Position numbers and translations under genes: made by a program. From the sequence record CP025907.1: a stretch of 31,521 nucleotides of DNA; one strand, written 5' to 3'. A model generated the notes under the pieces. The model did no database searches. It saw only the letters and a program-made list of their open reading frames with translations, and was not told where the DNA came from. The stretch is from Escherichia phage 204576. Shown piece by piece: positions 2,521 through 25,926 of this stretch. Each line of letters begins with the position of its first letter. Position 1 is the first letter of the stretch.

Positions 2521-3546
2521 ATGGGATTGTTTACGACCCGCCAGTTACTCGGTTATACCGAACAAAAAGTGAAATTCCGTGCGCTGTTTCTGGAGCTGTT
2601 TTTCCGCCGTACGGTGAATTTCCACACCGAAGAGGTGATGCTGGACAAAATTACCGGAAAAACGCCGGTGGCGGCCTATGTCTCCCCGATCGTTGAAGGA
2701 AAAGTGCTTCGCCATCGCGGTGGTGAAACCCGCGTGTTACGTCCGGGCTACGTCAAGCCGAAACACGAATTTAATTACCAGCAGGCGGTTGAGCGCCTTC
2801 CTGGTGAAGATCCGGCTCAGCTGAACGACCCGGCCTACCGTCGTCTGCGTATCATTACCGATAACCTCAAACAGGAAGAGCACGCCATTGTCCAGGTGGA
2901 AGAAATGCAGGCGGTGAATGCCGTGCTGTATGGCAAATACACCATGGAAGGGGATCAGTTTGATACTGTCGAGGTGGATTTCGGGCGCTCTGAAGGAAAT
3001 AACATTGAGCAGGCTGACGGTAAAAATGGTCTGAGCAGGACCGTGATACGTTTGATCCGACGCATGATATTGACCTCTACTGCGATCAGGCCAGCGGCCT
3101 TGTGAATATCGCCATTATGGACGGTACGGTCTGGCGTCTGCTGAATGGCTTTAAGCTGTTCCGCGAAAAACTGGATACCCGTCGCGGCTCAAATTCACAA
3201 CTCGAAACGGCAGTGAAAGATCTGGGCGCAGTGGTGTCCTTCAAGGGGTATTACGGCGATCTGGCCATTGTGGTGGCGAAAACGTCTTATGTGGCAGAGG
3301 ACGGTACCGAAAAACGTTATCTGCCGGAGGGCATGCTGGTGTTGGGGAATACGGCGGCAGAGGGATTCGTTGCTATGGTGCCATTAAGGATGCACAGGCG
3401 TTGTCTGAAGGAGTGGTGGCTTCTTCCCGTTACCCGAACACTGGCTGACCGTGGGCGATCCGTCCTGTGAATTCACCATGACGCAGTCCGCTCCGCTGAT
3501 GGTGCTGCCGGATCCGGATGAGTTTGTGGTGGTACAGGTGAAATAA
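2521..3546 (+). CDS. E: Major capsid protein E; two compensating frameshifts (about 3035 and about 3380)
   Basis: N-terminal ORF 2521..3105 matches lambda gpE (YVSPIV.G.V.R.RGG, PGYVKPKHE, AIVQVEEMQAV.AVL.GKYTM); the middle frame reads KLDTRRGSNS.LETAVKDLG; the C-terminus MTQSAPLMVLPDPDEFVVVQVK ends at 3546. Total span equals 341 codons as in lambda. Confidence 0.9.
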
Positions 3547-4865: not shown

Positions 4866-5261
4866 ATGAAACACACTGACATTCGTGCCGCAGTGCTGGA
4901 TGCACTCGAGCAGCATGAACACGGGGCGACGCTGTTTGATGGTCGCCCCGTTGTTTTTGACGAAGAGGATTTTCCTGCGATCGCGGTTTATCTGACGGAT
5001 GCAGAGTATACCGGTGAAGAGCTGGATGCAGATACCTGGCGGGCCACGCTGCATATTGAGGTGTTTTTACCGGCACAGGTACCGGATTCAGAGCTTGATC
5101 AGTGGATGGAAAGCCGGATTTACCCGGCGATGACCGCGATCCCGGCACTGGCAGGACTGATTACCACGATGGTTACGCAGGGCTATGAGTATCGTCGTGA
5201 TGACGATATGGCGTTATGGAGTTCTGCAGATCTGACTTATTCCATTACATACGAGATGTGA
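4866..5261 (+). CDS. U: Tail terminator protein U
   Basis: Intact 131-aa ORF, near-identical to lambda gpU ([48 protein letters not shown]). Confidence 0.9.
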
Positions 5262-6878: not shown

Positions 6879-9434
6879 ATGTCCCAGCCGGTTGGTGATC
6901 TTGTTATTGACCTGAGTCTGGATGCTGTCCGTTTCGATGAGCAGATGAGCCGGGTAAGCGTCATTTTCAGGTCTGGATACCGACGCCAGAAAAACCGCCA
7001 GTGCTGTTGAACAGGGCCTGAGCCGCAGGCGCTGGCTGCACAAAAAGCCGGGATTTCCGTCGGGCAGTATAAAGCGGCCATGCGAACCCTGCCGCACAGT
7101 TTACGGATATCGCCACGCAGCTTGCCGGTGGTCAGAATCCCTGGTTGATCCTGCTGCAACAGGGCGGTCAGGTGAAGGACTCCTTCGGCGGGATGATCCC
7201 ATGTTCAGGGGCTTGCCGGTGCGATCACCCTGCCGATGGTCGGGGTCACCTCGCTGGCGGTGGCGACAGGTGCGCTGGCGTACGCCTGGTACCAGGGCGA
7301 CGCACGCTTTCAGAATTTAATAAAACGCTGGTCCTTTCCGGCAATCAGGCCGGACTGACTGCCGATCGTATGCTGACGCTCTCAAGAGCCGGGCAGGCAG
7401 CAGGGCTGACGTTTAACCAGGCGAGAGAGTCACTGGCAGCCCTGGTGAATGCCGGTGTGCGTGGTGGTGAACAGTTTGATGCCATCAACCAGAGTGTCGC
7501 GCGTTTTGCGTCTGCATCCGGTGTGGAGGTGGATAAAGTCGCTGAAGCCTTCGGGAAGCTGACCACTGACCGACGTCGGGACTGATGGCGATGGCGCGCC
7601 AGTTCCGTAACGTGACGGCAGAGCAGATTGCGTATGTTGCACAGCTGCAGCGTTCCGAGACGAGGCCGGGGCATTGCAGGCGGCGAACGATATCGCCACG
7701 AAAGGCTTTGATGAGCAGACCCGTCGCCTGAAAGAAAACATGGGAAACTGGAGACCTGGGCGGATAAAACAGGGAAGGCATTCAAATCGATGTGGGATGC
7801 CATTCTGGATATCGGTCGTCCGGAATCCTCAGCGGATATGCTCGCCAGTGCGCAGAAGGCATTTGATGAGGCGGATAAAAAATGGCAGTGGTACCAGAGC
7901 CGGAGCCAGCGCCGGGGAAAGACCTCCTCTTTTCGTGCGAACCTTCAGGGGGCATGGGATGACGGGAAAATGCCCGTCTGGGTCTGGCAGCGGCCACGCT
8001 GCAGTCGGATATGGAAAAGCCGGTGAACTGGCGGCAAGGGACAGGGCTGAGCGTGAGTCGTCACAGCTGAAGTATACCGGAGAGGCGCAGAAGGCGTATG
8101 AGCGCCTGCAGACGCCGCTGATAAATATACCGGCCCGTCAGAAAGAGCTGAATAAGGCCCTGAAAGACGGAAAAATCCTGCAGGCGGATTACAACACGCT
8201 GATGGCGTCGGCAAAAAAGGATTATGAATCGACGCTGAAAAAGCCGTCAGGTGTGAAGGTGTCTGCCGGTGAGCGCCAGGAAGACCGGGCGCATGCAGCC
8301 CTGCTGGCGCTTGAAACCGAGCTCAGGACGCTGGAAAAACACAGCGGTGTGAATGAGAAAATCAGCCAGCAGCGCCGGGATTTATGGGAAGCGGAAAGTC
8401 AGTATGTGGTCCTGAAAGAGGCCGCCACGAAACGGCAGTTATCTGAGCAGGAAAAATCCCTGCTGGCTCATGAGAAAGAGACGCTGGAGTACAAACGCCA
8501 GCTGGCTGAGCTGGGAGACAAGATTGAACACCAGAAGCGGCTGAATGAGCTGGCACAGCAGGCGGCGCGGTTTGAACAGCAGCAAGCGCGAAGCAGGCGG
8601 CAATCAGCGCAAAGCCGCGGCCTCACCGACCGTCAGGCGCAGCGGGAGTCGAAGAGCAGCGCCTTCGTGAGGTGTACGGTGATAATCCGGCTGCGCTGGC
8701 GAAGGCCACATCGGCACTGAAGAACACCTGGTCTGCGGAGGAGCAGCTTCGTGGAAGCTGGATGGCGGGATGAAGTCCGGCTGGGGAGAGTGGGCGGAAA
8801 GTGCGACGGACAGTTTTTCGCAGGTTAAAAGTGTGGCCACGCAGACCTTTGACGGTATTGCACAGAATATGGCAGCGATGCTGACCGGCAGCGAACAGAA
8901 CTGGCGTGGTTTCACCCGTTCTGTGCTGTCCATGCTGACAGAGATTTTTTCTGAAGCAGGCGATGGTGGGGATAGTCGGGAGTATCGGCAGCGCCATTGC
9001 GGGGCTGTTGGTGGCGGCGCATCCGCGTCAGGCGGTACAGCCATTCAGGCTGCGGCGGCGAACTTCCATTTCGCGACCGGGGGATTTACGGGGACGGGGG
9101 GTAAATATGAACCTGCGGGGATTGTTCATCGCGGGGAGTTTGTCTTCACGAAGGAGGCGACCAGCCGGATTGGTGTCGGCAATCTGTACCGCCTGATGCG
9201 GGGCTATGCGGAAGGTGGTTATGTCGGCGGTGCCGGAAGTCCGGCGCAGATGCGGCGGGCGGAAGGCATTAATTTTAATCAGAACAATCACGTGGTGATT
9301 CAGAACGACGGCCCCAACGGGCGGGCAGGGCCGCAGCTGATGAAAGCGGTGTATGAGATGGCCCGCAAGGGGCACAGGATGAACTCCGGCTGCAGTTGCG
9401 TGATGGCGGTATGTTATCAGGGAGCGGTGGATGA
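6879..9434 (+). CDS. H: Tail tape measure protein H; at least 6 frameshifts
   Basis: Extensive matches to lambda gpH across ORFs 7145..7585, 7674..8720, 7790..8026 and 8770..9723 (LILLQQGGQVKDSFGGMIP, FNKTLVLSGNQAGLTADRML, SQLKYTGEAQKAYERLQTPL, GIVHRGEFVFTKEATSRIGVGNLYRLMRGYA). Span of 852 codons is close to lambda's 853 aa. Confidence 0.9.
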
Positions 9435-9756
9435 AACCTTTCGCTGGAAAGTGAAGCCGGATATGGAGGTGAACTCGCAGCCATCGGTGCGTGAAGTGCG
9501 TTTTGGTGACGGGTACTCACAGCGTATGGCGGCAGGGCTGAATGCTGACCTGAAAACATACAGGGTGACGCTTTCCGTGACCCGGGAGGAGGCCGGCATC
9601 TGGAAGCGTTCCTGGCAGAGCACGGTGGCTGGAAGGATTTTTGTGGAAGCCACCCTATGCATACCGGCAGATAAAGGTGACCTGTGCCGGGTGGTCTGCG
9701 CGGGTCGGGATGTTGCGCGTTGAGTTCAGCGCGGAGTTTAAGCAGGTGGTGAACTG
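9431..9756 (+). CDS. M: Minor tail protein M; frameshift near 9620
   Basis: FRWKVKP.M.V.S.PSVR.VRFGDGYSQR...GLNA.LKTY.VTLSV.REEA and C-terminal MLRVEFSAEF.QVVN match lambda gpM; ATGA overlap with the H stop. Confidence 0.85.
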
Positions 9757-12024: not shown

Positions 12025-15000
12025 ATGGGCAAAGGTGGCGGCAAGGCGCACACACCGCGTGAGGCGAAAGACAATCTCAAATCCACGCAGATGATGAGCG
12101 TGATTGATGCGATTGGTGAGGGACCGATAGATGGCCCGGTGAAAGGCCTGCAGAGTATTCTGGTGAACAAAACCCCGCTGACGGACACGGACGGTAATCC
12201 CGTGATACACGGTGTGACCGCGGTCTGGCGTGCCGGGGAGCAGGAGCAGACACCACCGGAAGGCTTTGAGTCCTCCGGCTCTGAAACTGTACTGGGTGTC
12301 GAAGTGACCAGGGCAAAACCGGTAACACGCACCATTACGTCAGCGAACATTGACCGCCTGCGGGTGACCTTCGGGGTGCAGTCACTGGTGGAGACCACGT
12401 CAAAGGGTGACCGTAATCCGTCCTCTGTCCGTCTGCTGATTCAGTTACAGCGTAACGGTAACTGGGTGACAGAAAAGGATGTCACCATTAACGGCAAGAC
12501 CACCTCACAGTTCCTGGCCTCGGTGATTCTGGATAATCTGCCTCCCCGCCCCTTTAACATCCGGATGGTCAGGGAGACGGCGGACAGCACCACGGACCAG
12601 CTGCAGAACAGAACGCTGTGGTCGTCATACACCGAAATCATCGATGTGAAACAGTGCTACCCGAACACGGCCATTGTGGGGATGCAGGTGGATGCGGAGC
12701 AGTTTGGTGGTCAGCAGATGACGGTGAACTACCATATCCGCGGTCGCATCATCCAGGTGCCGTCAAACTATGACCCGGAAAAACGCACGTACAGTGGTAT
12801 CTGGGACGGCAGTCTGAAACCGGCATACAGCAACAATCCGGCCTGGTGTCTGTGGGACATGCTGACTCACCCGCGCTACGGCATGGAAAACGTCTGGGGG
12901 CGGCGGATGTGGACAAGTGGGCGCTGTATGCCATCGGGCAGTACTGCGACCAGATGGTGCCGGATGGCTTCGGGGGCACCGAGCCGCGGATGACCTTCAA
13001 TGCGTACCTGGCACAACAGCGTAAGGCGTGGGATGTTCTCAGTGATTTCTGCTCGGCGATGCGCTGTATGCCGGTATGGAACGGCCAGATGCTGACGTTT
13101 GTTCAGGACCGCCTGTCGGATGTGGTGTGGCCGTACACCAACAGCGATGTGGTGGTGGATGATAACGGCGTGGGGTTCCGCTACAGCTTCAGTGCCCTGA
13201 AGGACCGGCACACGGCGGTGGAGGTGAATTACACCGACCCGCAGAACGGCTGGCAGACCTCCACGGAGCTGGTGGAAGACCCGGAAGCCATACTGCGCTA
13301 CGGGCGCAATCTGCTGAAGATGGACGCGTTCGGCTGTACCAGCCGCGGTCAGGCCCACCGTGCCGGACTGTGGGTGATAAAGACCGAACTGCTGGAAACG
13401 CAGACGGTGGATTTCACGCTCGGGTCTCAGGGGCTGCGGCACACACCCGGTGACATTATTGAAATCTGTGATAATGACTATGCCGGGACCCTGACCGGCG
13501 GACGTGTCCTGTCCATTGATGCTGCCACCCGCACCCTGACGCTGGACCGTGAGGTTACCCTGCCGGAGACCGGTGCCGCCACGGTGAACCTGATTAACGG
13601 CAGCGGTAAGCCGGTGAGTGTGGACATCACCGAACACCCCGCGCCGGACCGGATACAGGTCAGTACCCTGCCTGATGGTGTGGAGACATACGGGGTGTGG
13701 GGACTCTCCCTGCCGTCACTGCGCCGTCGCCTGTTCCGCTGTGTCTCCATCCGGGAAAACACGGACGGCACCTTTGCCATCACGGCGGTGCAGCACGTAC
13801 CGGAAAAAGAAGCCATCGTGGATAACGGTGCCCGCTTTGAGCCGCAGTCAGGTTCCCTGAACAGCGTCATCCCACCGGCAGTGCAGCACCTGACGGTGGA
13901 GGTGAGCGCAGCTGACGGCCAGTATCTGGCGCAGGCGAAATGGGACACGCCGCGGGTGGTGAAGGGTGTGCGCTTCAGTCTGCGCCTGACCAGTGGTAAG
14001 GGAACGGATGCCAGACTGGTGACCACCGCCATCACCGCAGACACGGAGCACCGTTTCAGCGGCCTGCCGCTCGGGGAATACACCCTGACGGTGCGGGCGA
14101 TAAACAGCTATGGCCAGCAGGGTGAACCTGCCACCACCACCTTCCGGATTGCCGCACCGGCAGCACCGTCGCGGATTGAGCTGACGCCGGGCTATTTTCA
14201 GATAACCGCCACGCCGCATCTTGCCGTTTATGACCCGACGGTACAGTTTGAGTTCTGGTTCTCGGAAAAGCGGATTGCGGATATCAGGCAGGTTGAAACC
14301 GCAGCCCGCTATCTTGGCTCGGCGCTGTACTGGATAGCTGCCAGTATCAATATCAAACCGGGCCATGATTATTATTTTTATATCCGCAGTGTGAATACTG
14401 TTGGCAAATCGGCATTTGTGGAGGCTGTTGGCCAGCCGAGTGATGATGCATCCGGCTATCTGGATTTTTTCAAAGGAGAGATAGGGAAAACCCATCTGGC
14501 TCAGGAGTTGTGGACGCAGATTGATAACGGTCAGCTTGCGCCTGACCTGGCTGAAATCAGGACGTCCATTACGGATGTCAGCAATGAAATCACGCAGACC
14601 GTCAATAAAAAACTGGAAGACCAGAGTGCAGCGATCCAGCAGATACAGAAGGTTCAGGTTGATACAAATAATAATCTGAACAGCATGTGGGCTGTGAAGC
14701 TGCAGCAGATGCAGGACGGACGCCTTTATATTGCGGGTATCGGTGCCGGTATTGAGAACACCCCCGACGGCATGCAGAGTCAGGTGCTGCTGGCGGCAGA
14801 CAGGATTGCGATGATTAATCCTGCAAATGGCAACACAAAACCGATGTTTGTTGGTCAGGGTGATCAGATATTCATGAACGAAGTGTTCCTGAAATACCTG
14901 ACGGCTCCCACCATTACCAGCGGCGGTAATCCTCCGGCATTTTCCCTGACACCGGACGGGCGGCTGACGGCGAAAAATGCCGATATCAGCGGTAACGTGA

Positions 15001-15497
15001 ATGCGAACTCCGGGACGCTCAACAACGTCACGATTAACGAGAACTGTCGGGTTCTGGGAAAATTGTCCGCCAACCAGATTGAAGGCGATCTCGTTAAAAC
15101 AGTGGGCAAAGCTTTCCCCCGGGACTCCCGTGCACCGGAACGGTGGCCATCAGGGACCATCACCGTCAGGGTTTATGACGATCAGCCGTTTGACCGGCAG
15201 ATTGTTATTCCGGCGGTGGCATTCAGCGGCGCTAAACATGAGCGGGAGAATAACGATATTTATTCGTCATGCCGCCTGATAGTACGGAAAAACGGTGCTG
15301 AAATTTATAACCGTACCGCGCTGGATAATACGCTGATTTACAGTGGTGTTATTGATATGCCAGCTGGTCGCGGCCACATGACGCTGGAGTTTTCGGTGTC
15401 AGCATGGCTGGTGAATAACTGGTATCCCACAGCAAGTATCAGCGATTTGCTGGTTGTGGTGATGAAGAAAGCCACCGCAGGCATCAGTATCAGCTGA
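12025..15497 (+). CDS. J: Central tail fibre / host specificity protein J; single frameshift near 12890
   Basis: Near-collinear match to lambda gpJ from [19 protein letters not shown] to the C-terminus. The frame break is at ggcatggaaaacgt where lambda encodes YGMGKRL, consistent with loss of one G. Confidence 0.95.
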
Positions 15498-15514
15498 ATT
15501 TTATAACCCATATA

Positions 15515-15542
15515 CGGGCGCCAGAAATGGCGCCTTTTTTAT
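15515..15542 (+). terminator. Rho-independent terminator after J
   Basis: GGCGCC-agaaat-GGCGCC stem-loop followed by TTTTTT. Confidence 0.7.
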
Positions 15543-15564
15543 TGCAGAAAAGCGAGAGGTAATT

Positions 15565-16164
15565 ATGCGTAAAGTTTGTGCAGTCATTTTGTCCGCAGCC
15601 ATCTGTCTGTCCGTATCCGGTGCGCCTGCATGGGCGTCTGAACATCAGTCCACACTGAGCGCGGGGTATCTTCATGCCCGTACGAACGCTCCCGGCAGCG
15701 ATAATCTGAACGGGATTAACGTGAAATACCGTTATGAGTTTACGGACGCGCTGGGGCTGATTACGTCCTTCAGTTATGCCAATGCTGAGGATGAGCAAAA
15801 AACGCACTACAGCGATACCCGCTGGCATGAAGATTCCGTGCGTAACCGCTGGTTCAGCGTGATGGCGGGGCCGTCTGTACGCGTGAATGAATGGTTCAGC
15901 GCGTATGCGATGGCGGGTGTAGCTTACAGCCGTGTGTCGACTTTCTCCGGGGATTATCTTCGCGTAACTGACAACAAGGGGAAAAAGCACGATGTGCTGA
16001 CCGGAAGTGATGACGGTCGTCACAGCAACACGTCTCTGGCGTGGGGGGCTGGCGTGCAGTTTAACCCGACCGAATCCGTGGCCATTGATATTGCTTATGA
16101 AGGCTCCGGCAGTGGTGACTGGCGCACTGACGGTTTCATCGTGGGTGTCGGTTATAAATTCTGA
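15565..16164 (+). CDS. lom: Lom outer-membrane protein (Ail/Lom family)
   Basis: Intact 199-aa ORF with signal-peptide-like N-terminus; INVKYRYE, YAMAGVA.SR and C-terminal IAYEGSGSGDWRTDGFIVGVGYKF identical to the lambda Lom end. Confidence 0.9.
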   Translation: MRKVCAVILSAAICLSVSGAPAWASEHQSTLSAGYLHARTNAPGSDNLNGINVKYRYEFTDALGLITSFSYANAEDEQKTHYSDTRWHEDSVRNRWFSVMAGPSVRVNEWFSAYAMAGVAYSRVSTFSGDYLRVTDNKGKKHDVLTGSDDGRHSNTSLAWGAGVQFNPTESVAIDIAYEGSGSGDWRTDGFIVGVGYKF

Positions 16165-16189
16165 TTAGCCAGGTAACACAGTGTTATGA

Positions 16190-16218
16190 CAGCCCGCCGG
16201 TTCAGGCGGGCTTTTTTG
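16190..16218 (+). terminator. Rho-independent terminator after lom
   Basis: GCCCGCC-ggttca-GGCGGGC stem followed by TTTTTT. Confidence 0.7.
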
Positions 16219-16228
16219 TGGGGTGAAT

Positions 16229-19200
16229 ATGGCAGTAAAGATTTCAGGTGTACTGAAAGACGGCACAGGAAAACCGGTACAGAACTGCACAATCCAGCTG
16301 AAAGCAAAACGTAACAGCACCACGGTGGTGGTGAACACGCTGGCCTCAGAAAATCCGGATGAAGCCGGGCGTTACAGCATGGACGTTGAGTACGGGCAGT
16401 ACAGCGTTATTCTGTTGGTGGAGGGATTCCCGCCGTCACATGCCGGGACCATCACCGTGTATGAAGATTCCAGACCAGGTACGCTGAATGATTTTCTCGG
16501 TGCCATGACGGAGGATGATGCCCGTCCTGAGGCACTGCGCCGTTTTGAACTGATGGTGGAAGAGGTGGCGCGTAACGCGTCCGCGGTGGCACAGAACACG
16601 GCAGCCGCGAAGAAGTCAGCCAGCGATGCCGGCACATCAGCCCGTGAGGCGGCAACCCATGCGACTGATGCTGCAGGCTCAGCACGCGCAGCCAGCACGT
16701 CAGCCGGACAGGCCGCGTCGTCGGCTCAGTCAGCATCTTCCAGCGCAGGAACGGCATCAACAAAGGCCAGTGAAGCATCGAAAAGTGCTGCTGCTGCAGA
16801 GTCCTCAAAAAGCGCGGCAGCTACCAGTGCCGCTGCGGCGAAAACGTCAGAAACGAATGCGGCAGCGTCACAACAATCAGCAGCCACTTCTGCATCCGCC
16901 GCGACCACGAAGGCGTCAGAAGCAGCCACCTCAGCCCGGGATGCGGCGGCCTCAAAAGAGGCAGCGAAATCATCAGAAACGAACGCATCATCAAGCGCCA
17001 GTAGTGCCGCTTCCTCGGCAACGGCGGCAGCAAATTCCGCGAAGGCGGCAAAAACGTCCGAGACGAACGCCAGGTCTTCTGAAACGGCAGCGGGACAGAG
17101 CGCCTCAGCTGCGGCAGGCTCAAAAACAGCGGCTGCGTCGTCTGCCAGTGCCGCGTCAACAAGTGCCGGGCAGGCCTCAGCCAGTGCCACCGCCGCCGGA
17201 AAATCGGCAGAAAGTGCCGCATCGTCTGCTTCAACAGCCACAACGAAGGCTGGCGAAGCCACTGAACAGGCCAGCGCAGCAGCGAGGTCTGCTTCCGCAG
17301 CGAAGACATCCGAGACGAACGCGAAAGCGTCGGAAACCAGCGCAGAATCCTCAAAAACGGCTGCCGCATCGTCCGCCAGTTCGGCGGCGTCATCGGCATC
17401 ATCGGCGTCTGCTTCAAAAGATGAGGCGACCAGACAAGCGTCCGCAGCGAAGGGCAGCGCCACGACAGCATCCACGAAGGCGACAGAGGCAGCTGGCAGT
17501 GCGACGGCGGCAGCACAGAGCAAAAGTACGGCGGAATCCGCGGCAACGCGCGCCGAGACAGCGGCAAAACGGGCAGAGGATATTGCATCCGCCGTGGCGC
17601 TTGAGGATGCAAGTACGACGAAAAAGGGGATAGTACAGCTCAGCAGTGCGACCAACAGTACGTCTGAAACGCTGGCGGCAACGCCAAAGGCAGTAAAATC
17701 AGCCTATGACAATGCAGAGAAACGTCTGCAGAAAGACCAGAACGGCGCTGATATACCCGATAAGGGACGCTTCCTGAACAACATTAACGCGGTCAGTAAA
17801 ACAGACTTTGCTGATAAGCGTGGTATGCGTTATGTGCGGGTTAACGCTCCTGCAGGTGCAATATCTGGAAAATATTACCCTGTTGTTGTTATGCGTTCTG
17901 CTGGCTCAGTAAGCGAACTGGCATCAAGGGTCATTATCACCACGGCAACGCGAGCCGCAGGCGATCCGATGAATAACTGCGAGTTTAACGGATTTGTTAT
18001 GCCAGCCGGATGGACTGACAGAGGGCGTTATGCCTATGGAATGTTCTGGCAATATCAAAACAATGAACGAGCCATTCACTCAATAATGATGAGTAATAAG
18101 GGCGATGATTTGCGCTCTGTGTTCTATGTTGATGGCGCTGCTTTCCCTGTTTTTGCGTTTATCGAAGATGGCCTGTCAATATCCGCACCTGGTGCTGATC
18201 TCGTTGTTAACGATACGACCTACAAGTTTGGGGCAACAAATCCGGCGACTGAATGTATCGCGGCGGACGTTATCCTTGATTTTAAGAGTGGGCGTGGTTT
18301 TTATGAGTCTCATTCGTTAATCGTTAACGATAACTTGTCGTGCAAAAAACTTTTTGCCACAGACGAAATTGTAGCGCGTGGTGGTAATCAGATTCGAATG
18401 ATAGGTGGGGAGTATGGGGCATTATGGCGTAATGATGGCGCTAAAACTTACCTGCTGCTTACCAATCAAGGTGATGTTTATGGTGGCTGGAATACATTAA
18501 GACCGTTTGCTATTGATAACGCAACCGGCGAACTGGTTATTGGAACCAAACTGTCTGCAAGTCTGAACGGTAACGCATTGACAGCAACAAAGCTGCAAAC
18601 GCCAAGACGGGTTTCTGGGATTGAGTTTGATGGTTCCAGAGATATTACTTTAACCGCCGCGCATGTGGCTGCTTTTGCCAGAAGGGCAACGGATACATAT
18701 GCCGATGCGGATGGTGGCGTTCCCTGGAATGCCGAATCAGGCGCTTATAATGTCACCCGCTCTGGCTACAGCTATATTCTGGTTAACTTCTATACCGGAG
18801 TCGGAAGTTGCCGGACCTTGCAGATGAAGGCGCATTACAGAAATGGTGGTCTGTTCTACCGTTCTTCAAGAGACGGTTATGGTTTTGAGGAAGACTGGGC
18901 AGAAGTTTATACCTCGAAAAATCTTCCACCAGAAAGCTACCCAGTCGGCGCACCAATCCCGTGGCCATCAGATACCGTTCCGTCTGGTTATGCCCTGATG
19001 CAGGGGCAGACTTTTAACAAATCTGCCTACCCGAAACTTGCAGCCGCTTATCCGTCAGGCGTGATCCCTGATATGCGTGGCTGGACGATTAAGGGCAAAC
19101 CTGCCAGTGGTCGGGCCGTATTGTCTCAGGAACAGGACGGCATTAAATCGCATACCCACAGCGCCAGCGCATCCAGTACGGATTTGGGGACGAAAACCAC

Positions 19201-19642
19201 ATCGTCGTTTGATTACGGCACTAAATCCACGAATAACACCGGGGCGCATACGCACAGTCTGAGTGGCTCTACGGGGTCTGCCGGTGTTCATACTCATGGT
19301 AATGGTATTCGTTGGCCAGGAGGCGGCGGTTCTGCGTTAGCATTTTATGATGGCGGTGGGTTCACTTATGTCCAGAATTCACAGTATCAAGTAAGCCCGG
19401 GGACTTCTTCCTATAGATCGTATTATCAACGTATTCAGACACAGTCAGCAGGTGCTCATACCCACTCGCTGTCTGGTACTGCAGCAAGTTCTGGCGCACA
19501 TGCACATACTGTAGGTATTGGTGCGCATACGCACTCCGTTGCGATTGGTTCACATGGACACACCATCACCGTTAACGCTGCGGGTAACGCGGAAAACACC
19601 GTCAAAAACATCGCATTTAACTATATTGTGAGGCTTGCATAA
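16229..19642 (+). CDS. stf: Side tail fibre protein Stf (long variant, about 1137 aa)
   Basis: N-terminus [26 protein letters not shown] matches lambda Stf; Ala/Ser/Thr-rich repeat region; C-terminus with GAHTHSLSG/HxH repeats and [26 protein letters not shown] identical to the lambda Stf end. Confidence 0.9.
16600..17600 (+). repeat. Low-complexity Ala/Ser/Thr-rich coding repeats within stf
   Basis: Repeated AAKTSETNA / SASAAS motifs; generates long spurious ORFs in the other five frames. Confidence 0.8.
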
Positions 19643-20226
19643 TGGCATTCAGAATGAGTGAACAAGCACGGACCATAAAAATTTATAATCTGCTGGCCGG
19701 AACTAATGAATTTATTGGTGAAGGTGACGCATATATTCCGCCTCATACAGGTCTGCCAGCAAACAGTACCGATATTGCACCACCAGATATTCCTGCTGGC
19801 TTTGTGGCTGTTTTCAACAGTGATGAGGCATCGTGGCATCTCGTTGAAGACCATCGGGGTAAAACGGTTTATGACGTAGCGTCAGGGGACGAGTTATTTA
19901 TTTCTGAACTCGGTCCGTTACCGGAAAATGTTACCTGGTTATCGCCGGAAGGGGAGTTTCAGAAGTGGAACGGCACAGCCTGGGTGAAGGATACGGAAGC
20001 AGAAAAAATGTTCCGGATCCGGGAGGCGGAAGAAACAAAAAACAACCTGATGCAGGTAGCCAGTGAGCATATTGCGCCGCTTCAGGATGCTGCAGATCTG
20101 GAAATTGCAACGGAGGAAGAAACCTCATTGCTGGAAGCCTGGAAAAAGTATCGGGTGTTGCTGAACCGTGTTGATACATCAACTGCACCTGATATTGAGT
20201 GGCCTACGAACCCTGTCAGGGAGTAA
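19642..20226 (+). CDS. tfa: Tail fibre assembly protein Tfa
   Basis: Intact 194-aa ORF, same length as lambda Tfa; start overlaps the stf stop (TAATGG). Confidence 0.85.
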
Positions 20227-20280
20227 TCATTGGGATTATGCCGCAGCACGTCTTAAGCAAGAACGTGCTGCGGTTGGATG

Positions 20281-20937
20281 CTATTTTTTCCCTGAAGCGG
20301 AAAACATTACTACAGTACCTTGAACCTTGGTTTTAACATTCTCGAAATGCTCTGAGAGTATATGTGTTAAGCCTTCTTCGGAATCTTTTGTGTTTGAAAA
20401 GATGCCTTTCTGATTGTAAATGCGCATCAGTTTTTGACCGAAGCTATTGTGCACAACTCCATCGCCAAGAATTGTGGCTCCGTATAGAGTTCCATCGTCA
20501 GTTAAGGCCTGCGCCGCATTGCGTATTACACAGCTTTTTGTAGATATATTTCCAGGCAGGCAGTGAAGAAGGTAAAACATGGAAATGGAATCAAATTGAC
20601 CATGTAACGCCGCGGGATAAGGTTCAAAAACATCATGGCTAATTTTATGTTTAATTTTTGATTCCCCAGCCCTTGTAGATGCCGCGTTCAGGCTAGCTTC
20701 GTTCAAATCCATTAAAGATATCAGACTACTCTCAGGTACGTGAGTAAGGTAAAACCCAGTTCCAACACCAATATCCAGATGGTTGTTACCTACATGTTCC
20801 AGAAAGTGTGGAAGAAGGTGTTCCTTTGTAGGACATCCCCATGCAAGCCGATTTGATACTCCCAAAACCCACCAGTCATAAAGCTTTAGGGTAAGTGGTG
20901 TGTAAATTTTAGCCCCATCATCTGTGTTTTTTTTCAT
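20281..20937 (-). CDS. Class I SAM-dependent methyltransferase (non-DNA type), low-GC cargo gene
   Basis: Motif I DIGVGTGFY (GxGxG), acidic post-I LMDLNEASL, motif II/III region FDSISMFYLLHCLP; no DPPY/NPPY DNA-methyltransferase motif. Preferred start MKKNTDDG with a GGTGA ribosome-binding site (ORF track start 20949). Confidence 0.7.
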   Translation of the reverse strand: MKKNTDDGAKIYTPLTLKLYDWWVLGVSNRLAWGCPTKEHLLPHFLEHVGNNHLDIGVGTGFYLTHVPESSLISLMDLNEASLNAASTRAGESKIKHKISHDVFEPYPAALHGQFDSISMFYLLHCLPGNISTKSCVIRNAAQALTDDGTLYGATILGDGVVHNSFGQKLMRIYNQKGIFSNTKDSEEGLTHILSEHFENVKTKVQGTVVMFSASGKK

Positions 20938-21005
20938 TGATTTCACCATGTTATAGTTTTATTTGTGAATTAAATCAATTATGGCGATGAATTACAAGGG
21001 GTTAA

Positions 21006-21275
21006 ATGCTGCCGCAGCATAGCGATATTGAAATAGCCTGGTATGCTTCGATACAGCAGGAGCCGAATGGCTGGAAGACCGTCACCACACAGTTCTACAT
21101 CCAGGAATTCAGTGAGTATATTGCGCCACTGCAGGATGCTGTAGATCTGGAAATCGCAACGGAGGAAGAAAGATCGTTGCTGGAGGCATGGAATAAATAT
21201 CGGGTATTGTTGAATCGTGTTGATACATCAACTGCACCTGATATTGAGTGGCCTGCAAATCCTGTCAGGGAGTAA
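21006..21275 (+). pseudogene. Remnant second tfa (C-terminal part of a different tfa allele)
   Basis: C-terminal 50 aa ([52 protein letters not shown]) near-identical to the end of the tfa at 19642..20226; the N-terminal part is short and not Tfa-like. Confidence 0.65.
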
Positions 21276-21278
21276 TCA

Positions 21279-21560
21279 TTGGGATTATGCCGCAGACACG
21301 TCGTATGCAGGAACGTGCTGCGGTTAGTTTGTGAGCTTTCGATAGTGGTTGTTATTTTTGCCCTTATTTGTTCCGGAGGCCATGGTTCAATGGTCCGTCT
21401 GCCCCCTGTGGTGATGTCAGCAAAATCAGCCACTGCGCGAACCACAATAGCCCGGGAAGATGCTGAAGATCACCAGGTAAAGCTATCAGCGCAGAAACTG
21501 GAAGAACTGCTCGCATCAATGGTTAAGGATGAGGTTGATCGCAATGATGGGATTTATTGA
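21279..21560 (+). CDS. Hypothetical small protein (possibly starting at the internal Met, about 56 aa)
   Basis: ORF only; GGAGG upstream of the internal ATG; no recognisable motifs. Confidence 0.2.
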   Translation: MGLCRRHVVCRNVLRLVCELSIVVVIFALICSGGHGSMVRLPPVVMSAKSATARTTIAREDAEDHQVKLSAQKLEELLASMVKDEVDRNDGIY

Positions 21561-21699
21561 CGTCAGCGAGAGCAGAAGGAAGAACTGAATAACCTGAATG
21601 ATTTACGCTCAATCAGAGCGATGATGATTGGCAGTAATTAGCGGTCAATTTCGGTTTTTTTGGCTGTGCGCTCCCCGCCCAGCATTGCGCGTCAATTAG

Positions 21700-22050
21700 C
21701 CCCAAAAAAACGAAAAAGTTACAATCAAGTAAAAAATTCCTTCTGCAAAACTAAAAAAGATTTCAATAAAATCAGACAGTTAAAAACATAAAAAAAAGGT
21801 ACAAAAAAACATCTCAAAGTCTTGTTTTTTGCTTCAAATACAATTGGTTATTGTGTTTTTTGAAACCTACCAGTGTGGTACATGGATATCGATACCACGG
21901 CTAAGTACAAATCTGGTGTTACTACCGTAAAAGACTCGGTACGACTGGATCCGTGGGTGTTTATGTTCTCCGCAGGATATCGTTTTTAATTTTCTCTGCA
22001 AAACCTCTGCAAAACCCCTCTGCAAAACTGGTCATCAAATGACCAGTTTT
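21700..22050. other. Putative attP region with arm-type integrase-binding repeats
   Basis: AT-rich segment adjacent to the int 3' end; three tandem CTCTGCAAAAC repeats at 21994..22028 and one TCTGCAAAAC at 21742..21751; placement as in lambda attP. Confidence 0.55.
22024..22050. terminator. Palindromic hairpin overlapping the int stop codon (terminator or sib-like element)
   Basis: AAAACTGGTCAT-caa-ATGACCAGTTTT perfect inverted repeat flanked by A/T runs on both sides. Confidence 0.4.
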
Positions 22051-23165
22051 TTCCATTCCTTACCGCGTGCGTCGTTGTAAATATCGGTCATTTTTTGATT
22101 CGAATGGCCTAGCAAAATTTTGGTATCAACCCCCTGCTCTCTTAACAATCGCTCTGATAAAGATCTCTGCTCATGGAAAGAGGGAGGGGTGCCATTAGCA
22201 CGCCAGTTGTAATCCACAGAATCCCGGGCTTTTTTAAATGCAACGGTTAATGTTGCTGGCTTAACCATCCCGCCGCGCTTAGCTGTCCCTTTCGCGTGAT
22301 GGTGGTGCAATAGCCACGGACTAAGAACGCAATCGCGGCAGGATGACACCACATCATCCAGGGTGAGATTTAATTTATCGCAACGCAGAGCCAGAGGGAT
22401 GGCAATCCGGGTTCCTGTTTTTTGCTGTTCGACATGAAGATAACCATCCCGGATATCCGAAAATTGCATTTTGCAAATATCTGAAAGGCGCTGGCCTGTC
22501 ATCAGTGCCAGCAGCATACCGCGCTGTAAAAAGTAACCATCCTTTTCCGCTGCGTTATAAATCATCATCCACTCATCAAAAGTCAGTCGCTGTCTTGATA
22601 TCCGCACCTGCGGTTTTTTTGCCGATTCTGCAGGGTTAAAGCCTGGCGGGACATCGCCCGTTTGCTGAGCTTCCCGGAAAACATCGATCAGTACCTTCCT
22701 GAAAATTTGTCCCATTCTGTTATGTCCTCTGGCCTTGTACTCTTCCAGTACTGATACCACATCTTTTACGGTTATGGCATCTAACGGTCTGGTGCCAAAA
22801 CGTTCATCAAATACCCTGAGAGGGGCCGCTTTCTGTTTCAGCGTGTTGAGTTTGATCTCGCCGTTTTCATATCTTTCCTGTTGAATTTTTCTGTAATTAT
22901 TCAGAAAAATGGTAACGGTTGATGAACCGCCGGTATCACTAATAATTTTCTCCTGCAGACTGAGCATTTGTTCCATTTGCTGCCGGGCAAGACGGCTGTT
23001 CGCTTCTGCTGCAATAGTTTCTGCCAGTTTCTGGTCAATACTGCCGAGACCGTGATTTTTGCCTGTTATGGGATGCCTGTAACGCCAGTAAACTTTGTTA
23101 TTTCTTTTGTCAAAATACGGAGATAATCCCGGAACATTGGTTTTATATTTTCGCGGGCGCGCCAT
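22035..23165 (-). CDS. int: Tyrosine integrase (lambda Int family)
   Basis: Intact 376-aa ORF; C-terminal catalytic region (TFHE.RSLS.RL, LLGHSNQKMTDIYNDARGKEWKKL) parallels lambda Int (LLGHKSDTMASQYRDDRGREWDKI). Confidence 0.9.
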   Translation of the reverse strand: MARPRKYKTNVPGLSPYFDKRNNKVYWRYRHPITGKNHGLGSIDQKLAETIAAEANSRLARQQMEQMLSLQEKIISDTGGSSTVTIFLNNYRKIQQERYENGEIKLNTLKQKAAPLRVFDERFGTRPLDAITVKDVVSVLEEYKARGHNRMGQIFRKVLIDVFREAQQTGDVPPGFNPAESAKKPQVRISRQRLTFDEWMMIYNAAEKDGYFLQRGMLLALMTGQRLSDICKMQFSDIRDGYLHVEQQKTGTRIAIPLALRCDKLNLTLDDVVSSCRDCVLSPWLLHHHHAKGTAKRGGMVKPATLTVAFKKARDSVDYNWRANGTPPSFHEQRSLSERLLREQGVDTKILLGHSNQKMTDIYNDARGKEWKKLVI

Positions 23166-23391
23166 CTTCCAGTATCCTCTTCAAAGCAGGGTGATCTGTG
23201 GCGATCACCTCCGGCTTGTTTACCATTCCGACAAAGCGAGCTTGCGGATCCACTCGCCAGCGTCTTCCAACTTTTTTGGGGAGAGGAAATATCATTCCGG
23301 CTTTAGCGTATTTACTTAACGTACTCGGAGTTGGGACCGGTTCACTGAATTCCTCTTTTGCCCACTCAGTGAGCAGAATAAGTCTTGCCAT
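23143..23391 (-). CDS. xis: Excisionase (Xis-like)
   Basis: 82-aa ORF overlapping the int start by 23 nt; LTEWAK......P.P.TLSKYAKAGMIFP.PKKVGRRW resembles lambda Xis. Confidence 0.7.
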   Translation of the reverse strand: MARLILLTEWAKEEFSEPVPTPSTLSKYAKAGMIFPLPKKVGRRWRVDPQARFVGMVNKPEVIATDHPALKRILEDGAPAKI

Positions 23392-23455
23392 GAGCGTCGT
23401 TCGCTAATCATGGTCGCCGCCACTATAGCTGGTGGGCAACGACCGGGGTTGAACA

Positions 23456-25926
23456 TTAAAAATCAGCCTGATTCGGGATCAGTTTTTGCCAGATAACTGA
23501 AACGTATTTTGCCTGGTAACGGGCGTCATCAAGTGCATTATGGCGCTCACCTTCGAATGGAATAGCCGTTCTGGCATCGAAGTCTATGGCTTTCCCCAGC
23601 TCAACGATTGTGCGTACATCGCGATCGTTGTAGTAACGCCACGGGCAGGGGATCCCCTGCCGTTCGTATGAACGGCGCAAAATCGTGTTGTCGAAGTTGG
23701 CTCCATTTCCCCAGACATGAACAAAAAATTCACCGGAGTTTTCGTCGATAAATTCCCGCAATTGTAACAGTGCATCATCTAACGGGATTTCATCGGTCAT
23801 AATGGCAGACTGCGCTTCACGTGATTGCTTCAGCCACCTTTTAATGACGTCACGATCAATGACTCCGCCAGCAGTTTCCAGATCGATAGTCTTACTAAAT
23901 TCCGGTCCCATATCTCCGGTTTGCGGATCGAAAAATATTGCACCTATTGAGATAATCGGGGCATCAGGATTTTTTCCCATGGTTTCAAGGTCGATCATTA
24001 GATGGTCACACGTCCTGCTGGTGGATGTGATAACGTGATGACCGTTCATCGTAATTAAGGGATCTGCCGTCTCGCCAGTTTCACTATCGCTGGCGTGATC
24101 CTGAGCGCTACCAGCATTCTCCTTGTGTGGATGTTCAGCGCCTTCCATTTCCTTCGGATCATTTTCCTGAACTTCAACCTGATTCTCTTCATCGAATGTT
24201 TCCTGGTATGTTGCGTCACCCATCACCGCGCCACAATCAGGGCAGTTGCCGCCACCGCTTTGACCGCAGGCGGTGCAGACTTTTTCCGGTTCCTGTTGCG
24301 CTACTGGCTCAGGTTGTTTCGTTTCTGGCTCGTTTTGTAACGCATTTGGGCTGTTTTGTTCCGCTTTCTGGCCGTTCTGTTCCGTTTCTTGTTGGTTCTG
24401 ATTCACTGAATCGCGGGTTTCAATCCCCTTCACCCATTTCGGATCATTCGGGTCGCTAATCCCTGCAACAAATTCACCACGTGATACAGCAAGCAACTTA
24501 TTGGCGTCAGGCTGGCTGATATTGGCTGCCTGCATAATTTTGTTTACTTCGTCAGCGGTAACTTTTACCGGCTCTGGTTGTGCGATCGTGTCAGATGCAC
24601 CAGTATTTTGTTGTGAACCTGAGTATGTACTGTTTTTGCGGGCGAAATATTCTTCTTTCGTGATTTCAGTAGCCCCGGCAGCCAGCGCCTTATCCAGACC
24701 AGAAAGTTTGTTTGCGCGACCGTATTTTTCGCCATCCTTGTCGGTGAAGAGGAAGTAGAACGGCCCTTCACGCTCTACAGATGGTTCGACTTCCACTTTG
24801 CATTCGGTTTTTTCGTTGTCCGGAATTGCCGTTTCCACTGCATCAGTTTCTGGTACTGGCGACGAGAGAGTATCAGTTGCGCTCTGATTTCTTCCTTCAT
24901 CTTCAAACACGCCCTTTGTAGTCAGGTATTCAGTAATGTATTTGTTCAGTGCCACAGGGTCTTTGTGAATGTCGATCGGACGTTCACGGACAAGGCCAAA
25001 AATAGTCTGGCGGTCGTAGCGAAGGGCATCAGGCTGTTTGCGCATTGATGCCGAGATACGCTTCCAGTCTTCGCGGTCGTTGTCGATAACTTCATTTTTT
25101 GCCCAGCGATGGATGCTGCCGTCAATGTTTCCGGCATCCACATCACCAGGCCAGAGAGCGTAGGCCAGTTCGTCATCCAGTGTTTTCCATGTCTGCTTGT
25201 ATTCGCGATGAATGGCAGCAATGACCGGGCTGATTTTTCCTGTTGAATTTTCACTGTGCTGTTGATTGGTTCTGGCGCAGGCGAGATCAACAACAGACGT
25301 GTATTTTCCGGTTTCCTTGCGTTCACCTTCGCGACGTTTTTCCAGATGCGCATCTCTGCCTGAATTTCGGGCCATTTGGCACCAGGCTTACATTTATGCT
25401 TAACCCACCCGATGGCATGCAGCTTAAGCTCCGGATACATGGCGTTAACTTCTGGCATTTTCATCAACGCTTCAACGATATGTCCGTCGAATGTTGCCAT
25501 GTCTTCCTGCAACAATTCCTGTGCGCTAATAACCATATCAACGGTGATGTTTTCACATGTGTCGAACTTAACCATGACAGCGTTCTGTACTTCAGGGGAC
25601 AGCTTGTCAAAATTGACGTTCATCGGATCGGATTCTGGTTCGACTGGAATAAAGGAAGCGGATTCCTCATCCCAGCGGTTTTCCTGCATATATTCAGCAT
25701 CCCAGGAATCGAGGGCAGGGCGGGGTATACCGGGTTTATCCTCGCAGACAAGAAATTTATAAGCGCAGTCCTGAGCAGCCGGATAATGTTCCAGGAATTG
25801 CCAGTGAAATTTTGCGCGGGCGCGACGTTCATCACCGGCTTCAATGGCAGTGGCTACAGCGACGGCACCTTCTTCCTTTATTGCCTGTTCGTCCGGAATG
25901 GCGGCGCAAATAAAGACTTTACTCAT
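23456..25926 (-). CDS. Large exonuclease-like protein: acidic N-terminal domain, Cys4 zinc ribbon, C-terminal DEDDh (DnaQ-like) 3'-5' exonuclease domain; probably one frameshift near 25250-25375
   Basis: ORFs 24946..25926 and 23456..25375 overlap in different frames and both look protein-like near the junction. C-terminus carries DEDDh motifs (IDLETMG, VWGNGANFDNTIL, HNALDDARYQA) and a central CTACG...CPDCG zinc ribbon. Confidence 0.65.

Follow-up and report, generated by a model that had tools for sequence, protein, structure and literature searches.

The closest described counterpart of the locus analyzed in this study lies in the DLP12 prophage of Escherichia coli K-12 MG1655, where an arrangement annotated as tfaD-ybcY-tfaX, with ybcY on the minus strand, is found. 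The RefSeq names occur in thousands of genomes and both ORFs, ybcY and tfaX, belong to PHROG families. On the function of ybcY and tfaX only promoter-mapping and expression lists turned up in the literature, and nothing specific was found in that on morons or methyltransferases. Morons, a concept attributed to Hendrix and colleagues, are reportedly extra, independently transcribed genes of lambdoid phages, such as lom and bor of lambda, that are carried as cargo downstream of the tail-fibre genes. Another group of described systems consists of the invertible modules Mu G/Gin, P1 C/Cin and e14 P/Pin, with copies in inverted orientation, short crossover sites and a serine invertase gene next to them.

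The DNA analyzed here, referred to as the window, is a stretch of 31,521 nucleotides of Escherichia phage 204576 (CP025907.1). The repeat-flanked methyltransferase gene in it is the ybcY-tfaX cargo module, which is already known and is found beside the tail-fibre genes in most E. coli prophages. Thus, the locus represents a mosaic junction of an ordinary kind rather than a new system. With a probability of about 0.8, it is a ybcY-tfaX moron module in the usual cargo position between tfa and the attachment site of an ompW-integrating lambda-like phage. Its features are as follows.

19642–20226, plus strand: tfa, full-length tail fibre assembly gene, 194 aa (Pfam PF02413 Caudo_TAP; PHROG 105)
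20050–20275, plus strand: direct repeat copy A, the tfa 3' end (conserved C-terminal domain) with hairpin A
20241–20273, no strand assigned: hairpin A (CCGCAGCACGT...ACGTGCTGCGG), between the convergent tfa and methyltransferase genes
20281–20949, minus strand: predicted class I SAM-dependent methyltransferase, ybcY homologue (Pfam, PHROG 2132, AlphaFold model)
20950–21005, minus strand: divergent promoter region with candidate hexamers (sequence reading and a published list)
21006–21275, plus strand: 89-codon ORF, tfaX homologue (partial Caudo_TAP match; PHROG 2341)
21099–21325, plus strand: direct repeat copy B, including hairpin B at 21290–21323
21372–21641, plus strand: DUF4376 tail-fibre-related gene fragment (RefSeq in UTI89, EFF60 and 190693; PHROG 7703/1141)

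Self-alignment of the window identified a 226-bp direct repeat (20050–20275 versus 21099–21325), whose copies were 89–90% identical and differed by one 1-nt indel. The repeat comprised a block of 197 nt (20050–20246 and 21099–21295, 89%) and a block of 29 nt (20247–20275 and 21297–21325, 90%), with the indel after 20246. Its identity was high from 20061/21110 and ended sharply at 20275/21325, and the longest perfect stretches were 39 bp (20167–20205) and 35 bp (20212–20246). Such identity over 226 bp is far beyond background and chance expectation for a window of 31.5 kb. A sequence-only reading of the same DNA had placed the repeats at 20062–20276 and 21111–21320, in direct orientation and 85–90% identical by eye. 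The measured boundaries are within a few bases of these positions, and the alignment agrees on the orientation. The repeated segment consists of the final ~59 codons of tfa and the downstream hairpin. The 5' part of copy B carried tfaX-specific alleles, and its last codons and hairpin were identical to the tfa 3' end of cassette-less prophages.

The upstream gene, tfa, encodes a tail fibre assembly protein. Residues 72–191 matched Caudo_TAP with an E-value of 1.3e-44 (151.9 bits; cut-off 22.1), a full-length match, and residues 1–192 matched PHROG 105, 'tail fiber assembly'. At the DNA level, tfa was ~92% identical to orf-194 of lambda. It is directly downstream of the side tail fibre gene, stf, and its start overlaps the stf stop at 19642. 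The 89-codon ORF, in which copy B ends, is truncated and tfa-like, as had been noticed from the sequence. It consists of 31 codons of other sequence fused to the final ~58 codons of tfa, and its residues 31–86 matched only positions 75–130 of the 131-position Caudo_TAP model. A protein search with the N-terminal 31 residues gave no longer natural protein that contains them and returned only the N-terminus of the ORF's own family; the N-terminal codons gave a weak match to PHROG 3893. In Tfa proteins, the variable N-terminal domain binds the fibre and the conserved C-terminal helical domain serves as a trimerisation module (PMC9608196). Pfam detected no two-domain Tfa architecture in the 89-codon ORF, from which the variable N-terminal domain is missing. 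According to this domain description (PMC9608196) and the matched Pfam positions, the repeated segment encodes the conserved C-terminal domain. Given that the remnant and the functional tfa both encode it, the 226-bp direct repeat brackets the cassette.

Hairpin A had a folding energy of -28.6 kcal/mol on the plus strand (z = -3.5) and -25.4 kcal/mol on the minus strand (z = -3.35), and hairpin B one of -24.2 kcal/mol. Hairpin A is probably a two-way terminator. No U-tract was found in the sequence on the minus strand, at the 3' side of the methyltransferase gene, and an interrupted U-tract caused hairpin A to be missed by a consensus terminator scan. In addition, hairpin A marks the left edge of the mobile module. 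The sequences of O157 FRIK2455 and phage Turner become homologous to the window at 20235/20241, and the DNA leftward of this point is unrelated.

Between the repeat copies a single ORF was found, the minus-strand gene at 20281–20949. Its GC content was 0.411, compared with 0.479 for tfa, 0.536 for stf and 0.524 for the window, and it matched Pfam methyltransferase families, in line with the low-GC methyltransferase gene that had been proposed for this interval. Translation probably starts at the ATG at 20937, which gives 218 aa. The identified Pfam families were Methyltransf_12 (37.5 bits, cut-off 30), Methyltransf_23 (29, cut-off 27) and Methyltransf_25 (27.7, cut-off 27), with Methyltransf_11 also at threshold; all NCBIfam matches were far below their cut-offs. 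Residues 5–222 matched PHROG 2132 (E = 4e-157), and the protein was 100% identical to cluster P0002 of 6589 member sequences. Its AlphaFold model (pLDDT 90.3) has a Rossmann methyltransferase fold and matched more than 1300 methyltransferase chains of the PDB at E ≤ 0.001. Moreover, motif I, DIGVGTG, was invariant among 29 aligned homologues, which shared 60 invariant residues. The domain and the glycine-rich SAM-binding motif I thus identify the predicted product as a class I SAM-dependent methyltransferase.

The top 50 structural matches were all small-molecule, lipid or natural-product methyltransferases. From sequence and model, the enzyme is probably of the small-molecule/lipid type and its target a small molecule or lipid rather than DNA, which refines the earlier assignment to methyltransferases; the class I SAM fold itself agrees with that assignment. 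A role as DNA methylase or in anti-restriction was rejected, since no DNA methylase family was among the Pfam and NCBIfam matches and sequence and fold searches of the PDB returned small-molecule/lipid methyltransferases only. Membership in a defence system was also rejected, the PADLOC match being 12.9 bits, which is noise. No characterised close relative was present among the homologues. Copies of the gene from E. coli and phages differed by 0–5 synonymous and 2–4 non-synonymous substitutions, which are too few to test purifying selection.

Two candidate promoters were found on the minus strand of the divergent region. The first is TTGATT (20978–20973) and TATAAC (20955–20950) with a spacing of 17 nt, and the second, from a consensus scan, is TTAACC-16-CATAAT (21005–20978). 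Genomic SELEX of the RpoD holoenzyme gave TTGATT-17-TATAAC for ybcY in the ybcY/tfaX spacer of K-12, where H-NS is also marked (PMC3946193), and these published hexamers were found unchanged in the window. The candidate -10 hexamer abuts the first ATG of the methyltransferase ORF, which makes the transcript start and the start codon uncertain. In a lysogen, the gene would probably be transcribed from its own predicted sigma-70 promoter, under H-NS silencing.

The methyltransferase segment (20281–21005) was found in 3836 of 5426 complete E. coli genomes (71%), at 4882 places and always with at least 95% identity. The whole context of the window type was present in 763 genomes, including UTI89, S88, APEC O1 and ATCC 11775 with 100% identity. 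The module was also found in the isolated phages PhiR26_1, PhiR30_1, 2G7b, ev243, Turner and Kati. The edges of the module coincided between contexts. Its left edge was at 20235/20241 (O157 and Turner) or 20106/20110 (2G7b and UPEC 26-1). Its right edge was at 21230, followed by an alpha/beta hydrolase gene that is upstream of ompT in three phages, or at 21252 in K-12, and the O157 copy was also broken at its right edge by an IS66-family element. The module adjoined different tfa alleles and also non-tfa genes; it moves from prophage to prophage together with a tfa remnant of its own. The proposal that the gene was acquired by recombination between tfa alleles is consistent with these results, with the refinement that the cassette is a pre-existing, very widespread ybcY-tfaX module and not one assembled here.

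The cassette was absent from lambda, in which the hairpin follows directly after tfa, and from 20 E. coli genomes of the same prophage type, in which tfa is joined directly to the DUF4376 fragment. It is thus accessory and not a core component of all relatives, the finding that would have spoken against a cargo gene. The DUF4376 fragment, whose translation contains an internal stop, is downstream of the cassette and was present in filled as well as empty alleles. Of nine empty alleles examined, eight were at the ompW/yciE-trp site, and in eight the last tfa codons and the hairpin were of the copy-B type. The B-specific alleles at 20052–20166 were absent from all nine. In EFF60, the junction was of the copy-A type through 20211 and of the copy-B type from 20246, and no junction of this type was found in any other of the 5426 genomes. 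In UTI89, K-12, 2G7b and PhiR26_1, the A-type end (ACGAAC and hairpin A) accompanies the cassette. EFF60 has the chimera of copy A and copy B that recombination between the repeats would be expected to produce. Its flanks were just 95–97% identical to the window, so it is not a recent derivative of the window's exact lineage and could be another type of recombinant.

At the sites that distinguish deletion from an ancestral state, EFF60 was resolved and the other eight empties examined were ambiguous. For most empties, an ancestral allele that was never filled and an old deletion in the 39-bp stretch fit equally well. An account by insertion only, in which all empties are ancestral, the cassette entered once through a double crossover, leaving the repeats as a passive scar without meaningful loss, is rather unlikely. 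In its favor, the 20 empties had diverse tfa alleles, 93–99% identical to the window, and came from unrelated strains from pigs, humans and water, whereas the filled form was 100% identical across many B2 strains, as in recent clonal spread. The 3' end of eight of nine empties, which equals the distal part of copy B, also fits, as if copy B had kept the resident tfa end. Against it, EFF60 joins a cassette-linked A-type tfa end to hairpin B in a junction unique among the 5426 genomes. Moreover, the 39-bp and 35-bp perfect stretches are exactly where both observed junction classes fall, and there homologous recombination would proceed in either direction. Cassette loss through recombination between the repeats is plausible from the sequences compared. 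The precise loss suggested by the sequence-only reading fits EFF60; a recent deletion in the window's own lineage was not seen.

The moron reading suggests the following history. Homologues with 56–65% identity were single genes in ordinary chromosomal neighborhoods of Salmonella, Enterobacter and Erwinia. Given that these distant homologues stand alone in chromosomes, capture of the phage gene from a host is probable. The methyltransferase gene would have been captured from a bacterial chromosome, and an illegitimate join of its upstream DNA with the middle of a tfa gene would have created tfaX. In the window, this host-type gene has an AT-rich upstream region and a 3' hairpin and is antisense to the late operon, with the 5'-truncated tfa remnant beyond. 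The module may then have spread by homologous recombination, with conserved tfa 3' sequence as homology arms. In the lineage of the window, the right-hand exchange may have taken place inside tfaX, so copy B would be a hybrid, with tfaX-type alleles to ~21215 and then the tfa end, hairpin and DUF4376 fragment of the resident prophage. Recombination between the repeats, easiest in the 39-bp and 35-bp perfect stretches, would remove the cassette precisely and leave tfa intact.

The 89-codon ORF is probably a relic. That it is a working stand-alone Tfa C-terminal domain, which aids or disturbs fibre trimerisation and for which the repeat is kept by selection, is very unlikely. The ORF is open in the window with a Shine-Dalgarno-like AAGGGG 4 nt upstream of its ATG, matches its own PHROG family over its full length (PHROG 2341, 1–88 of 88), occurs in hundreds of near-identical copies and retains the trimerisation module (PMC9608196). 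However, in most contexts the tfa homology stops at 21230 and is followed by unrelated codons, so the C-terminus varies among forms of 82, 89, 101 and 142 aa. The remnant has a 7-nt deletion in 2G7b and an in-frame stop in K-12 and is wholly absent from UPEC 26-1. Moreover, the UTI89 copy is a RefSeq pseudogene labeled 'missing N-terminus', in keeping with the lost fibre-binding domain, and the -10 element of the reported tfaX promoter overlaps the ATG of the ORF.

Similarly improbable is that the module is an active unit of lysogenic conversion or exclusion, in which methylation of an envelope lipid or small molecule would alter susceptibility to phages or host factors and the Tfa peptide would act as a decoy against superinfecting lambdoid phages. 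If this were true, selection rather than hitch-hiking would account for the occurrence of the module in 71% of E. coli genomes. Finally, a remnant of an invertible or switchable host-range module of the Mu G, P1 C or e14 P type, which duplicated tfa sequences typify and to which the DNA invertase between tfa and the same methyltransferase module in phage Turner might point, is effectively refuted by the direct orientation of the copies, a metabolic-type methyltransferase between them and the lack of flanking inverted repeats (two weak unrelated inverted pairs in 17000–24000), of an alternative fibre tip gene and of an invertase (no resolvase domain among the ORFs scanned and no invertase-sized ORF between tfa and int), as the sequence-only reading had held.

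As the arrangement was already annotated in K-12, the discovery value of the locus is small. It is a clean worked example of cargo shuffling in lambdoid phages. Coding sequence for a conserved chaperone domain would serve as portable homology, by which a captured host gene moves between prophages with different tail fibres, and the cassette may be lost again with tfa undamaged.

Compared with known systems, the locus shares duplicated Tfa-coding sequence beside fibre genes with Mu G/Gin, P1 C/Cin and e14 P/Pin. Different from these systems, it has direct copies, lacks an invertase and carries between the copies a gene that has nothing to do with fibres. Its contents, one methyltransferase ORF and a tfa remnant, are not those of a transposon, IS or integron cassette, and a flanking repeat of 226 bp of phage coding sequence rules out a target-site duplication. 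Similar to morons, the methyltransferase gene is missing at the same junction of related phages (lambda and the 20 E. coli genomes), deviates in composition and occupies the cargo region from the tail fibres to att, in antisense orientation relative to the late operon. It also has promoter-like sequence, with hexamers identical to those of ybcY, and a stable 3' hairpin without a U-tract on that strand. A flanking duplication of phage coding sequence, 226 bp long here, is lacking in most described morons. In sequence and structure, the gene product was best matched by juvenile hormone acid methyltransferase, UbiG, bacterial phosphatidylethanolamine N-methyltransferase, NodS and SgvM, with which it shares the Rossmann methyltransferase fold and the GxGxG SAM-binding motif. 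The identities to these enzymes were 13–21%, the structural matches were generic with TM-scores of 0.55–0.66, and the phage family has its own invariant N-terminal motif, YDWWVL...AW.C.T.

The DLP12 region of K-12 has the gene order and orientation of the window. It is colinear with 19788–21252 of the window at 96.9% identity and shares the internal repeat and the ybcY promoter hexamers. However, ybcY of K-12 is a frameshifted pseudogene with two gaps, whereas the methyltransferase gene of the window is intact. In K-12, the homology of tfaX to tfa ends at 21252, and appY and ompT come next. Different from K-12, copy B of the window reaches the natural tfa stop, the hairpin and the DUF4376 fragment near the ompW attachment site.

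The region from the fibre genes to the integration genes contained the following features, with Pfam used for domain assignment.

15565-16164: lom, upstream of the side tail fibre gene
16223-19642: side tail fibre gene (stf), 1139 aa
19642-20226: tail fibre assembly gene (tfa), after stf
20281-20949, minus strand: methyltransferase ORF
21006-21275, plus strand: 89-codon ORF
22035-23165, minus strand: lambda-type integrase gene (int)
23143-23391, minus strand: xis, adjoining int
23456-25375, minus strand: 639-aa protein, adjoining xis; Pfam places an Rv2179c-like 3'-5' exoribonuclease (DEDDh) domain at its C-terminus (E=6e-63), and its N-terminal part is long, acidic and of low complexity

A repeat finder and pairwise alignment revealed one direct repeat, whose two copies, copy A and copy B, bracket the methyltransferase cassette. 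It consists of a 197-nt block (20050-20246 and 21099-21295, 89% identity) and a 29-nt block (20247-20275 and 21297-21325, 90%), and copy B has 1 extra base relative to copy A. Per-base comparison showed a sharp onset of identity near 20061, an end at 20275, and two perfectly matching stretches, one of 39 bp (20167-20205) and one of 35 bp (20212-20246). Each copy covers the final ~59 codons of tfa together with a GC-rich hairpin; the folding energies of the hairpins were -28.6 and -24.2 kcal/mol. The GC content was 41% between the copies, compared with 52% for the window and 48–54% for the fibre genes. Thus, the repeats of the tfa end and stem-loop, their direct orientation and the low GC between them, all described in the sequence-only reading, were borne out to within a few bases.

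In lambda, tfa is followed by the hairpin and then ea47, and both copies map to this single lambda site. An artificial query in which tfa, one repeat and the DNA downstream of copy B were joined gave a single uninterrupted match in each of E. coli EFF60 and 190693, where it lies within the same prophage, again at the ompW/yciE-trp site. With a balanced 600-nt junction query, of which a locus carrying the cassette cannot cover 80%, the empty arrangement, where tfa is joined directly to a DUF4376 gene fragment, was found in exactly 20 genomes at 93–99% identity. Given the empty junctions of lambda and E. coli, the methyltransferase gene is accessory rather than a conserved core gene of all related phages.

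Nine of the empty genomes were scored at the sites where the two copies differ. None possessed the B-specific alleles at 20052-20166; in eight, tfa ended in the B-type codons (GCAAAT), and the hairpin of copy B was present in all nine. EFF60 alone was A-type through 20211 and B-type from 20246. If the empty forms are ancestral, copy B would be a hybrid, of which the 5' part, with tfaX-type alleles, arrived with the module and the 3' part is the resident tfa end kept after a crossover in shared sequence. Alternatively, the empty forms would have arisen by deletion, through crossovers within the perfect stretch of 39 bp. Each reading fits most of the data, and the two would be the forward and reverse directions of the same reaction, which site patterns alone cannot separate. 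In UTI89, K-12, 2G7b and PhiR26_1, the A-type end (ACGAAC) was linked to the hairpin of copy A and the cassette. In EFF60, the ACGAAC end was joined to the hairpin of copy B, a junction present in no other of 5426 genomes and the product that would be expected of an exchange between the copies in the 35-bp perfect stretch. The flanks of EFF60 were only 95–97% identical to the window; therefore, EFF60 was not derived from this exact lineage. Recombination at the repeats demonstrably connects the filled and empty forms, at least one loss of the cassette is likely, and the majority of the empty forms may well be ancestral. The finding is real, and its earlier interpretation, a cargo gene gained by recombination between tfa alleles, is essentially right.

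The module edges were determined by comparison with six other contexts. The hairpin of copy A is part of the methyltransferase unit. In E. coli O157:H7 FRIK2455 and in phage Turner, tfa is separated from the module by a catalase/yciGFE-like cluster and by a DNA invertase with small ORFs, respectively, and both sequences become homologous to the window at 20235/20241. The left arm of 2G7b and UPEC 26-1 is merely a 3' fragment of tfa, from 20106/20110. At the right end, homology stops at 21230 in PhiR26_1, 2G7b, Turner and O157, with the ORF continuing into unrelated codons, at 21252 in K-12 and at 21032 in UPEC 26-1. Among the contexts compared, copy B runs through the natural tfa stop and the hairpin only in the ompW-type prophage. 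In 2G7b, Turner and PhiR26_1, the module is followed by an alpha/beta hydrolase gene (~1.4–1.5 kb) and then ompT; thus, the omptin travels as phage cargo beside the ybcY-tfaX module. In FRIK2455, an IS66-family element interrupts the copy at the right end and is followed by the hydrolase gene, with no ompT within the stretch read.

The 89-aa ORF matched only the C-terminal 56 positions of the Pfam Tfa model. In Tfa proteins, this segment is a conserved helical trimerisation domain, and fibre binding is the role of the N-terminal domain, which is variable (PMC9608196). In a protein search, the first 31 codons were found in no longer protein and solely at the N-terminus of the same ORF family. 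That the ORF, which is open in the window and preceded by a Shine-Dalgarno-like sequence, encodes a functional mini-Tfa is conceivable but improbable, as its C-terminus varies with context, the ORF is disrupted in 2G7b and K-12, and UPEC 26-1 lacks it. An invertible fibre switch, already discounted in the sequence-only reading because of the direct repeats and the lack of a Gin/Pin-type invertase, is excluded by the direct copies, the absence of flanking inverted repeats and the absence of an invertase from tfa to int and among the ORFs scanned, and the cassette content excludes a transposon or integron cassette.

The methyltransferase ORF reached the Pfam thresholds of four class I methyltransferase families, and its SAM-binding motif DIGVGTG was invariant in 29 homologs. 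Its predicted structure is a Rossmann methyltransferase (pLDDT 90.3). The closest solved relatives by sequence or fold were juvenile-hormone acid methyltransferase, UbiG, bacterial phosphatidylethanolamine N-methyltransferase, NodS, SgvM and similar small-molecule enzymes, with identities of 13–21% and TM-scores of 0.55–0.66. Profile searches matched neither DNA-methylase nor defence families. A length of 218 aa in the homologs and a PHROG profile alignment that begins at residue 5 make the ATG at 20937 the probable true start. The protein family has >2000 members in Enterobacterales and beyond. Members with 56–65% identity occur singly among ordinary chromosomal genes: near cybB/hrpA in Salmonella, next to an ABC transporter in Enterobacter, and in Erwinia. 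Those with 68–90% identity in Citrobacter freundii and C. braakii have dinI, sodC, a transthyretin-like gene and sopA-type effector/prophage cargo as neighbours, which suggests recurrent prophage cargo in other enterobacteria too. Together, these homologs are consistent with a phage having captured a host gene that then spread as a moron, an extra phage cargo gene.

The 56-bp spacer between the methyltransferase gene and the 89-aa ORF contains TTGATT-17-TATAAC on the minus strand. In a map of RpoD holoenzyme sites obtained by genomic SELEX, these hexamers are assigned to ybcY in its spacer with tfaX, where H-NS is also marked (PMC3946193). A second promoter-like site lies just upstream. Given these hexamers and the H-NS mark, independent expression of the methyltransferase in the lysogen, damped by H-NS, is plausible. 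The hairpin between the convergent tfa and methyltransferase genes was predicted by folding to be stable on both strands, without a clean U-tract on the minus strand.

Downstream of copy B, 21372-21641 contains the DUF4376 gene fragment with an internal stop, a second tail-fibre-related relic common to prophages with and without the cassette. Some relatives (NMBU-W13E19 and EC15) carry an insertion of rha and ash-family genes between this relic and the ompW fragment. Within 21640-22035, an AT-rich stretch (GC 0.36) and a copy of the last 41 codons of ompW (...DPWVFMFSAGYRF*, 21864-21989) follow the tail genes and cargo, with int and xis coming next. The window is therefore in phage (circular) rather than prophage gene order; attP lies inside the ompW 3' copy, and the phage would integrate into ompW and rebuild the 3' end of the gene. 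In UTI89, the same sequence makes up the attR side, beside yciE.

When 13350-21991 was compared with UTI89, only 18947-21991 was about 98.8–100% identical to its prophage; J, lom and the 5' part of stf were 89–92% identical, and 17700-18950 did not align at all. Thus, the fibre tip, tfa, cargo and att region are a separately exchanged mosaic block. Within stf, 16600-17650 encodes a long Ala/Ser/Thr-rich low-complexity region in the N-terminal third of the fibre and differs from the rest of stf, with internal 30–37-nt repeats, a GC of 0.60–0.64 and strong AT skew. Several structural genes appeared broken (2521-3105, 8770-9723, 12025-12993 and 12846-15497): the capsid E-like ORF has just 194 aa (Pfam positions 1–178 of 329), one ORF fuses the tape-measure C-terminus to a minor tail protein, and J is split into two overlapping ORFs. 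These suggest frameshifts through prophage decay or sequencing errors.

The 2 kb at 19642-21640 was 100% identical to prophages in UTI89, S88, APEC O1, ATCC 11775 and many other strains, and 763 of the 5426 complete genomes held at least 80% of it. RefSeq labels the genes in these prophages as a tail fibre assembly protein, a class I SAM-dependent methyltransferase and a tfa pseudogene without the N-terminus. The methyltransferase segment alone (20281-21005) occurred in 3836 of the 5426 genomes, at 4882 places and always with at least 95% identity; about 70% of E. coli strains carry the methyltransferase. The segment was also found in the isolated phages PhiR26_1, PhiR30_1, 2G7b, ev243, Turner and Kati, and the methyltransferase and 89-aa ORFs have separate PHROG families of their own. 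The cassette is thus a prophage cargo module that is already known and annotated and is extremely common, and the junction where it sits is a typical mosaic one. The DLP12 prophage of K-12 MG1655 has the same order, tfaD, ybcY (a minus-strand pseudogene) and tfaX, colinear with 19788-21252 of the window at 96.9% identity.
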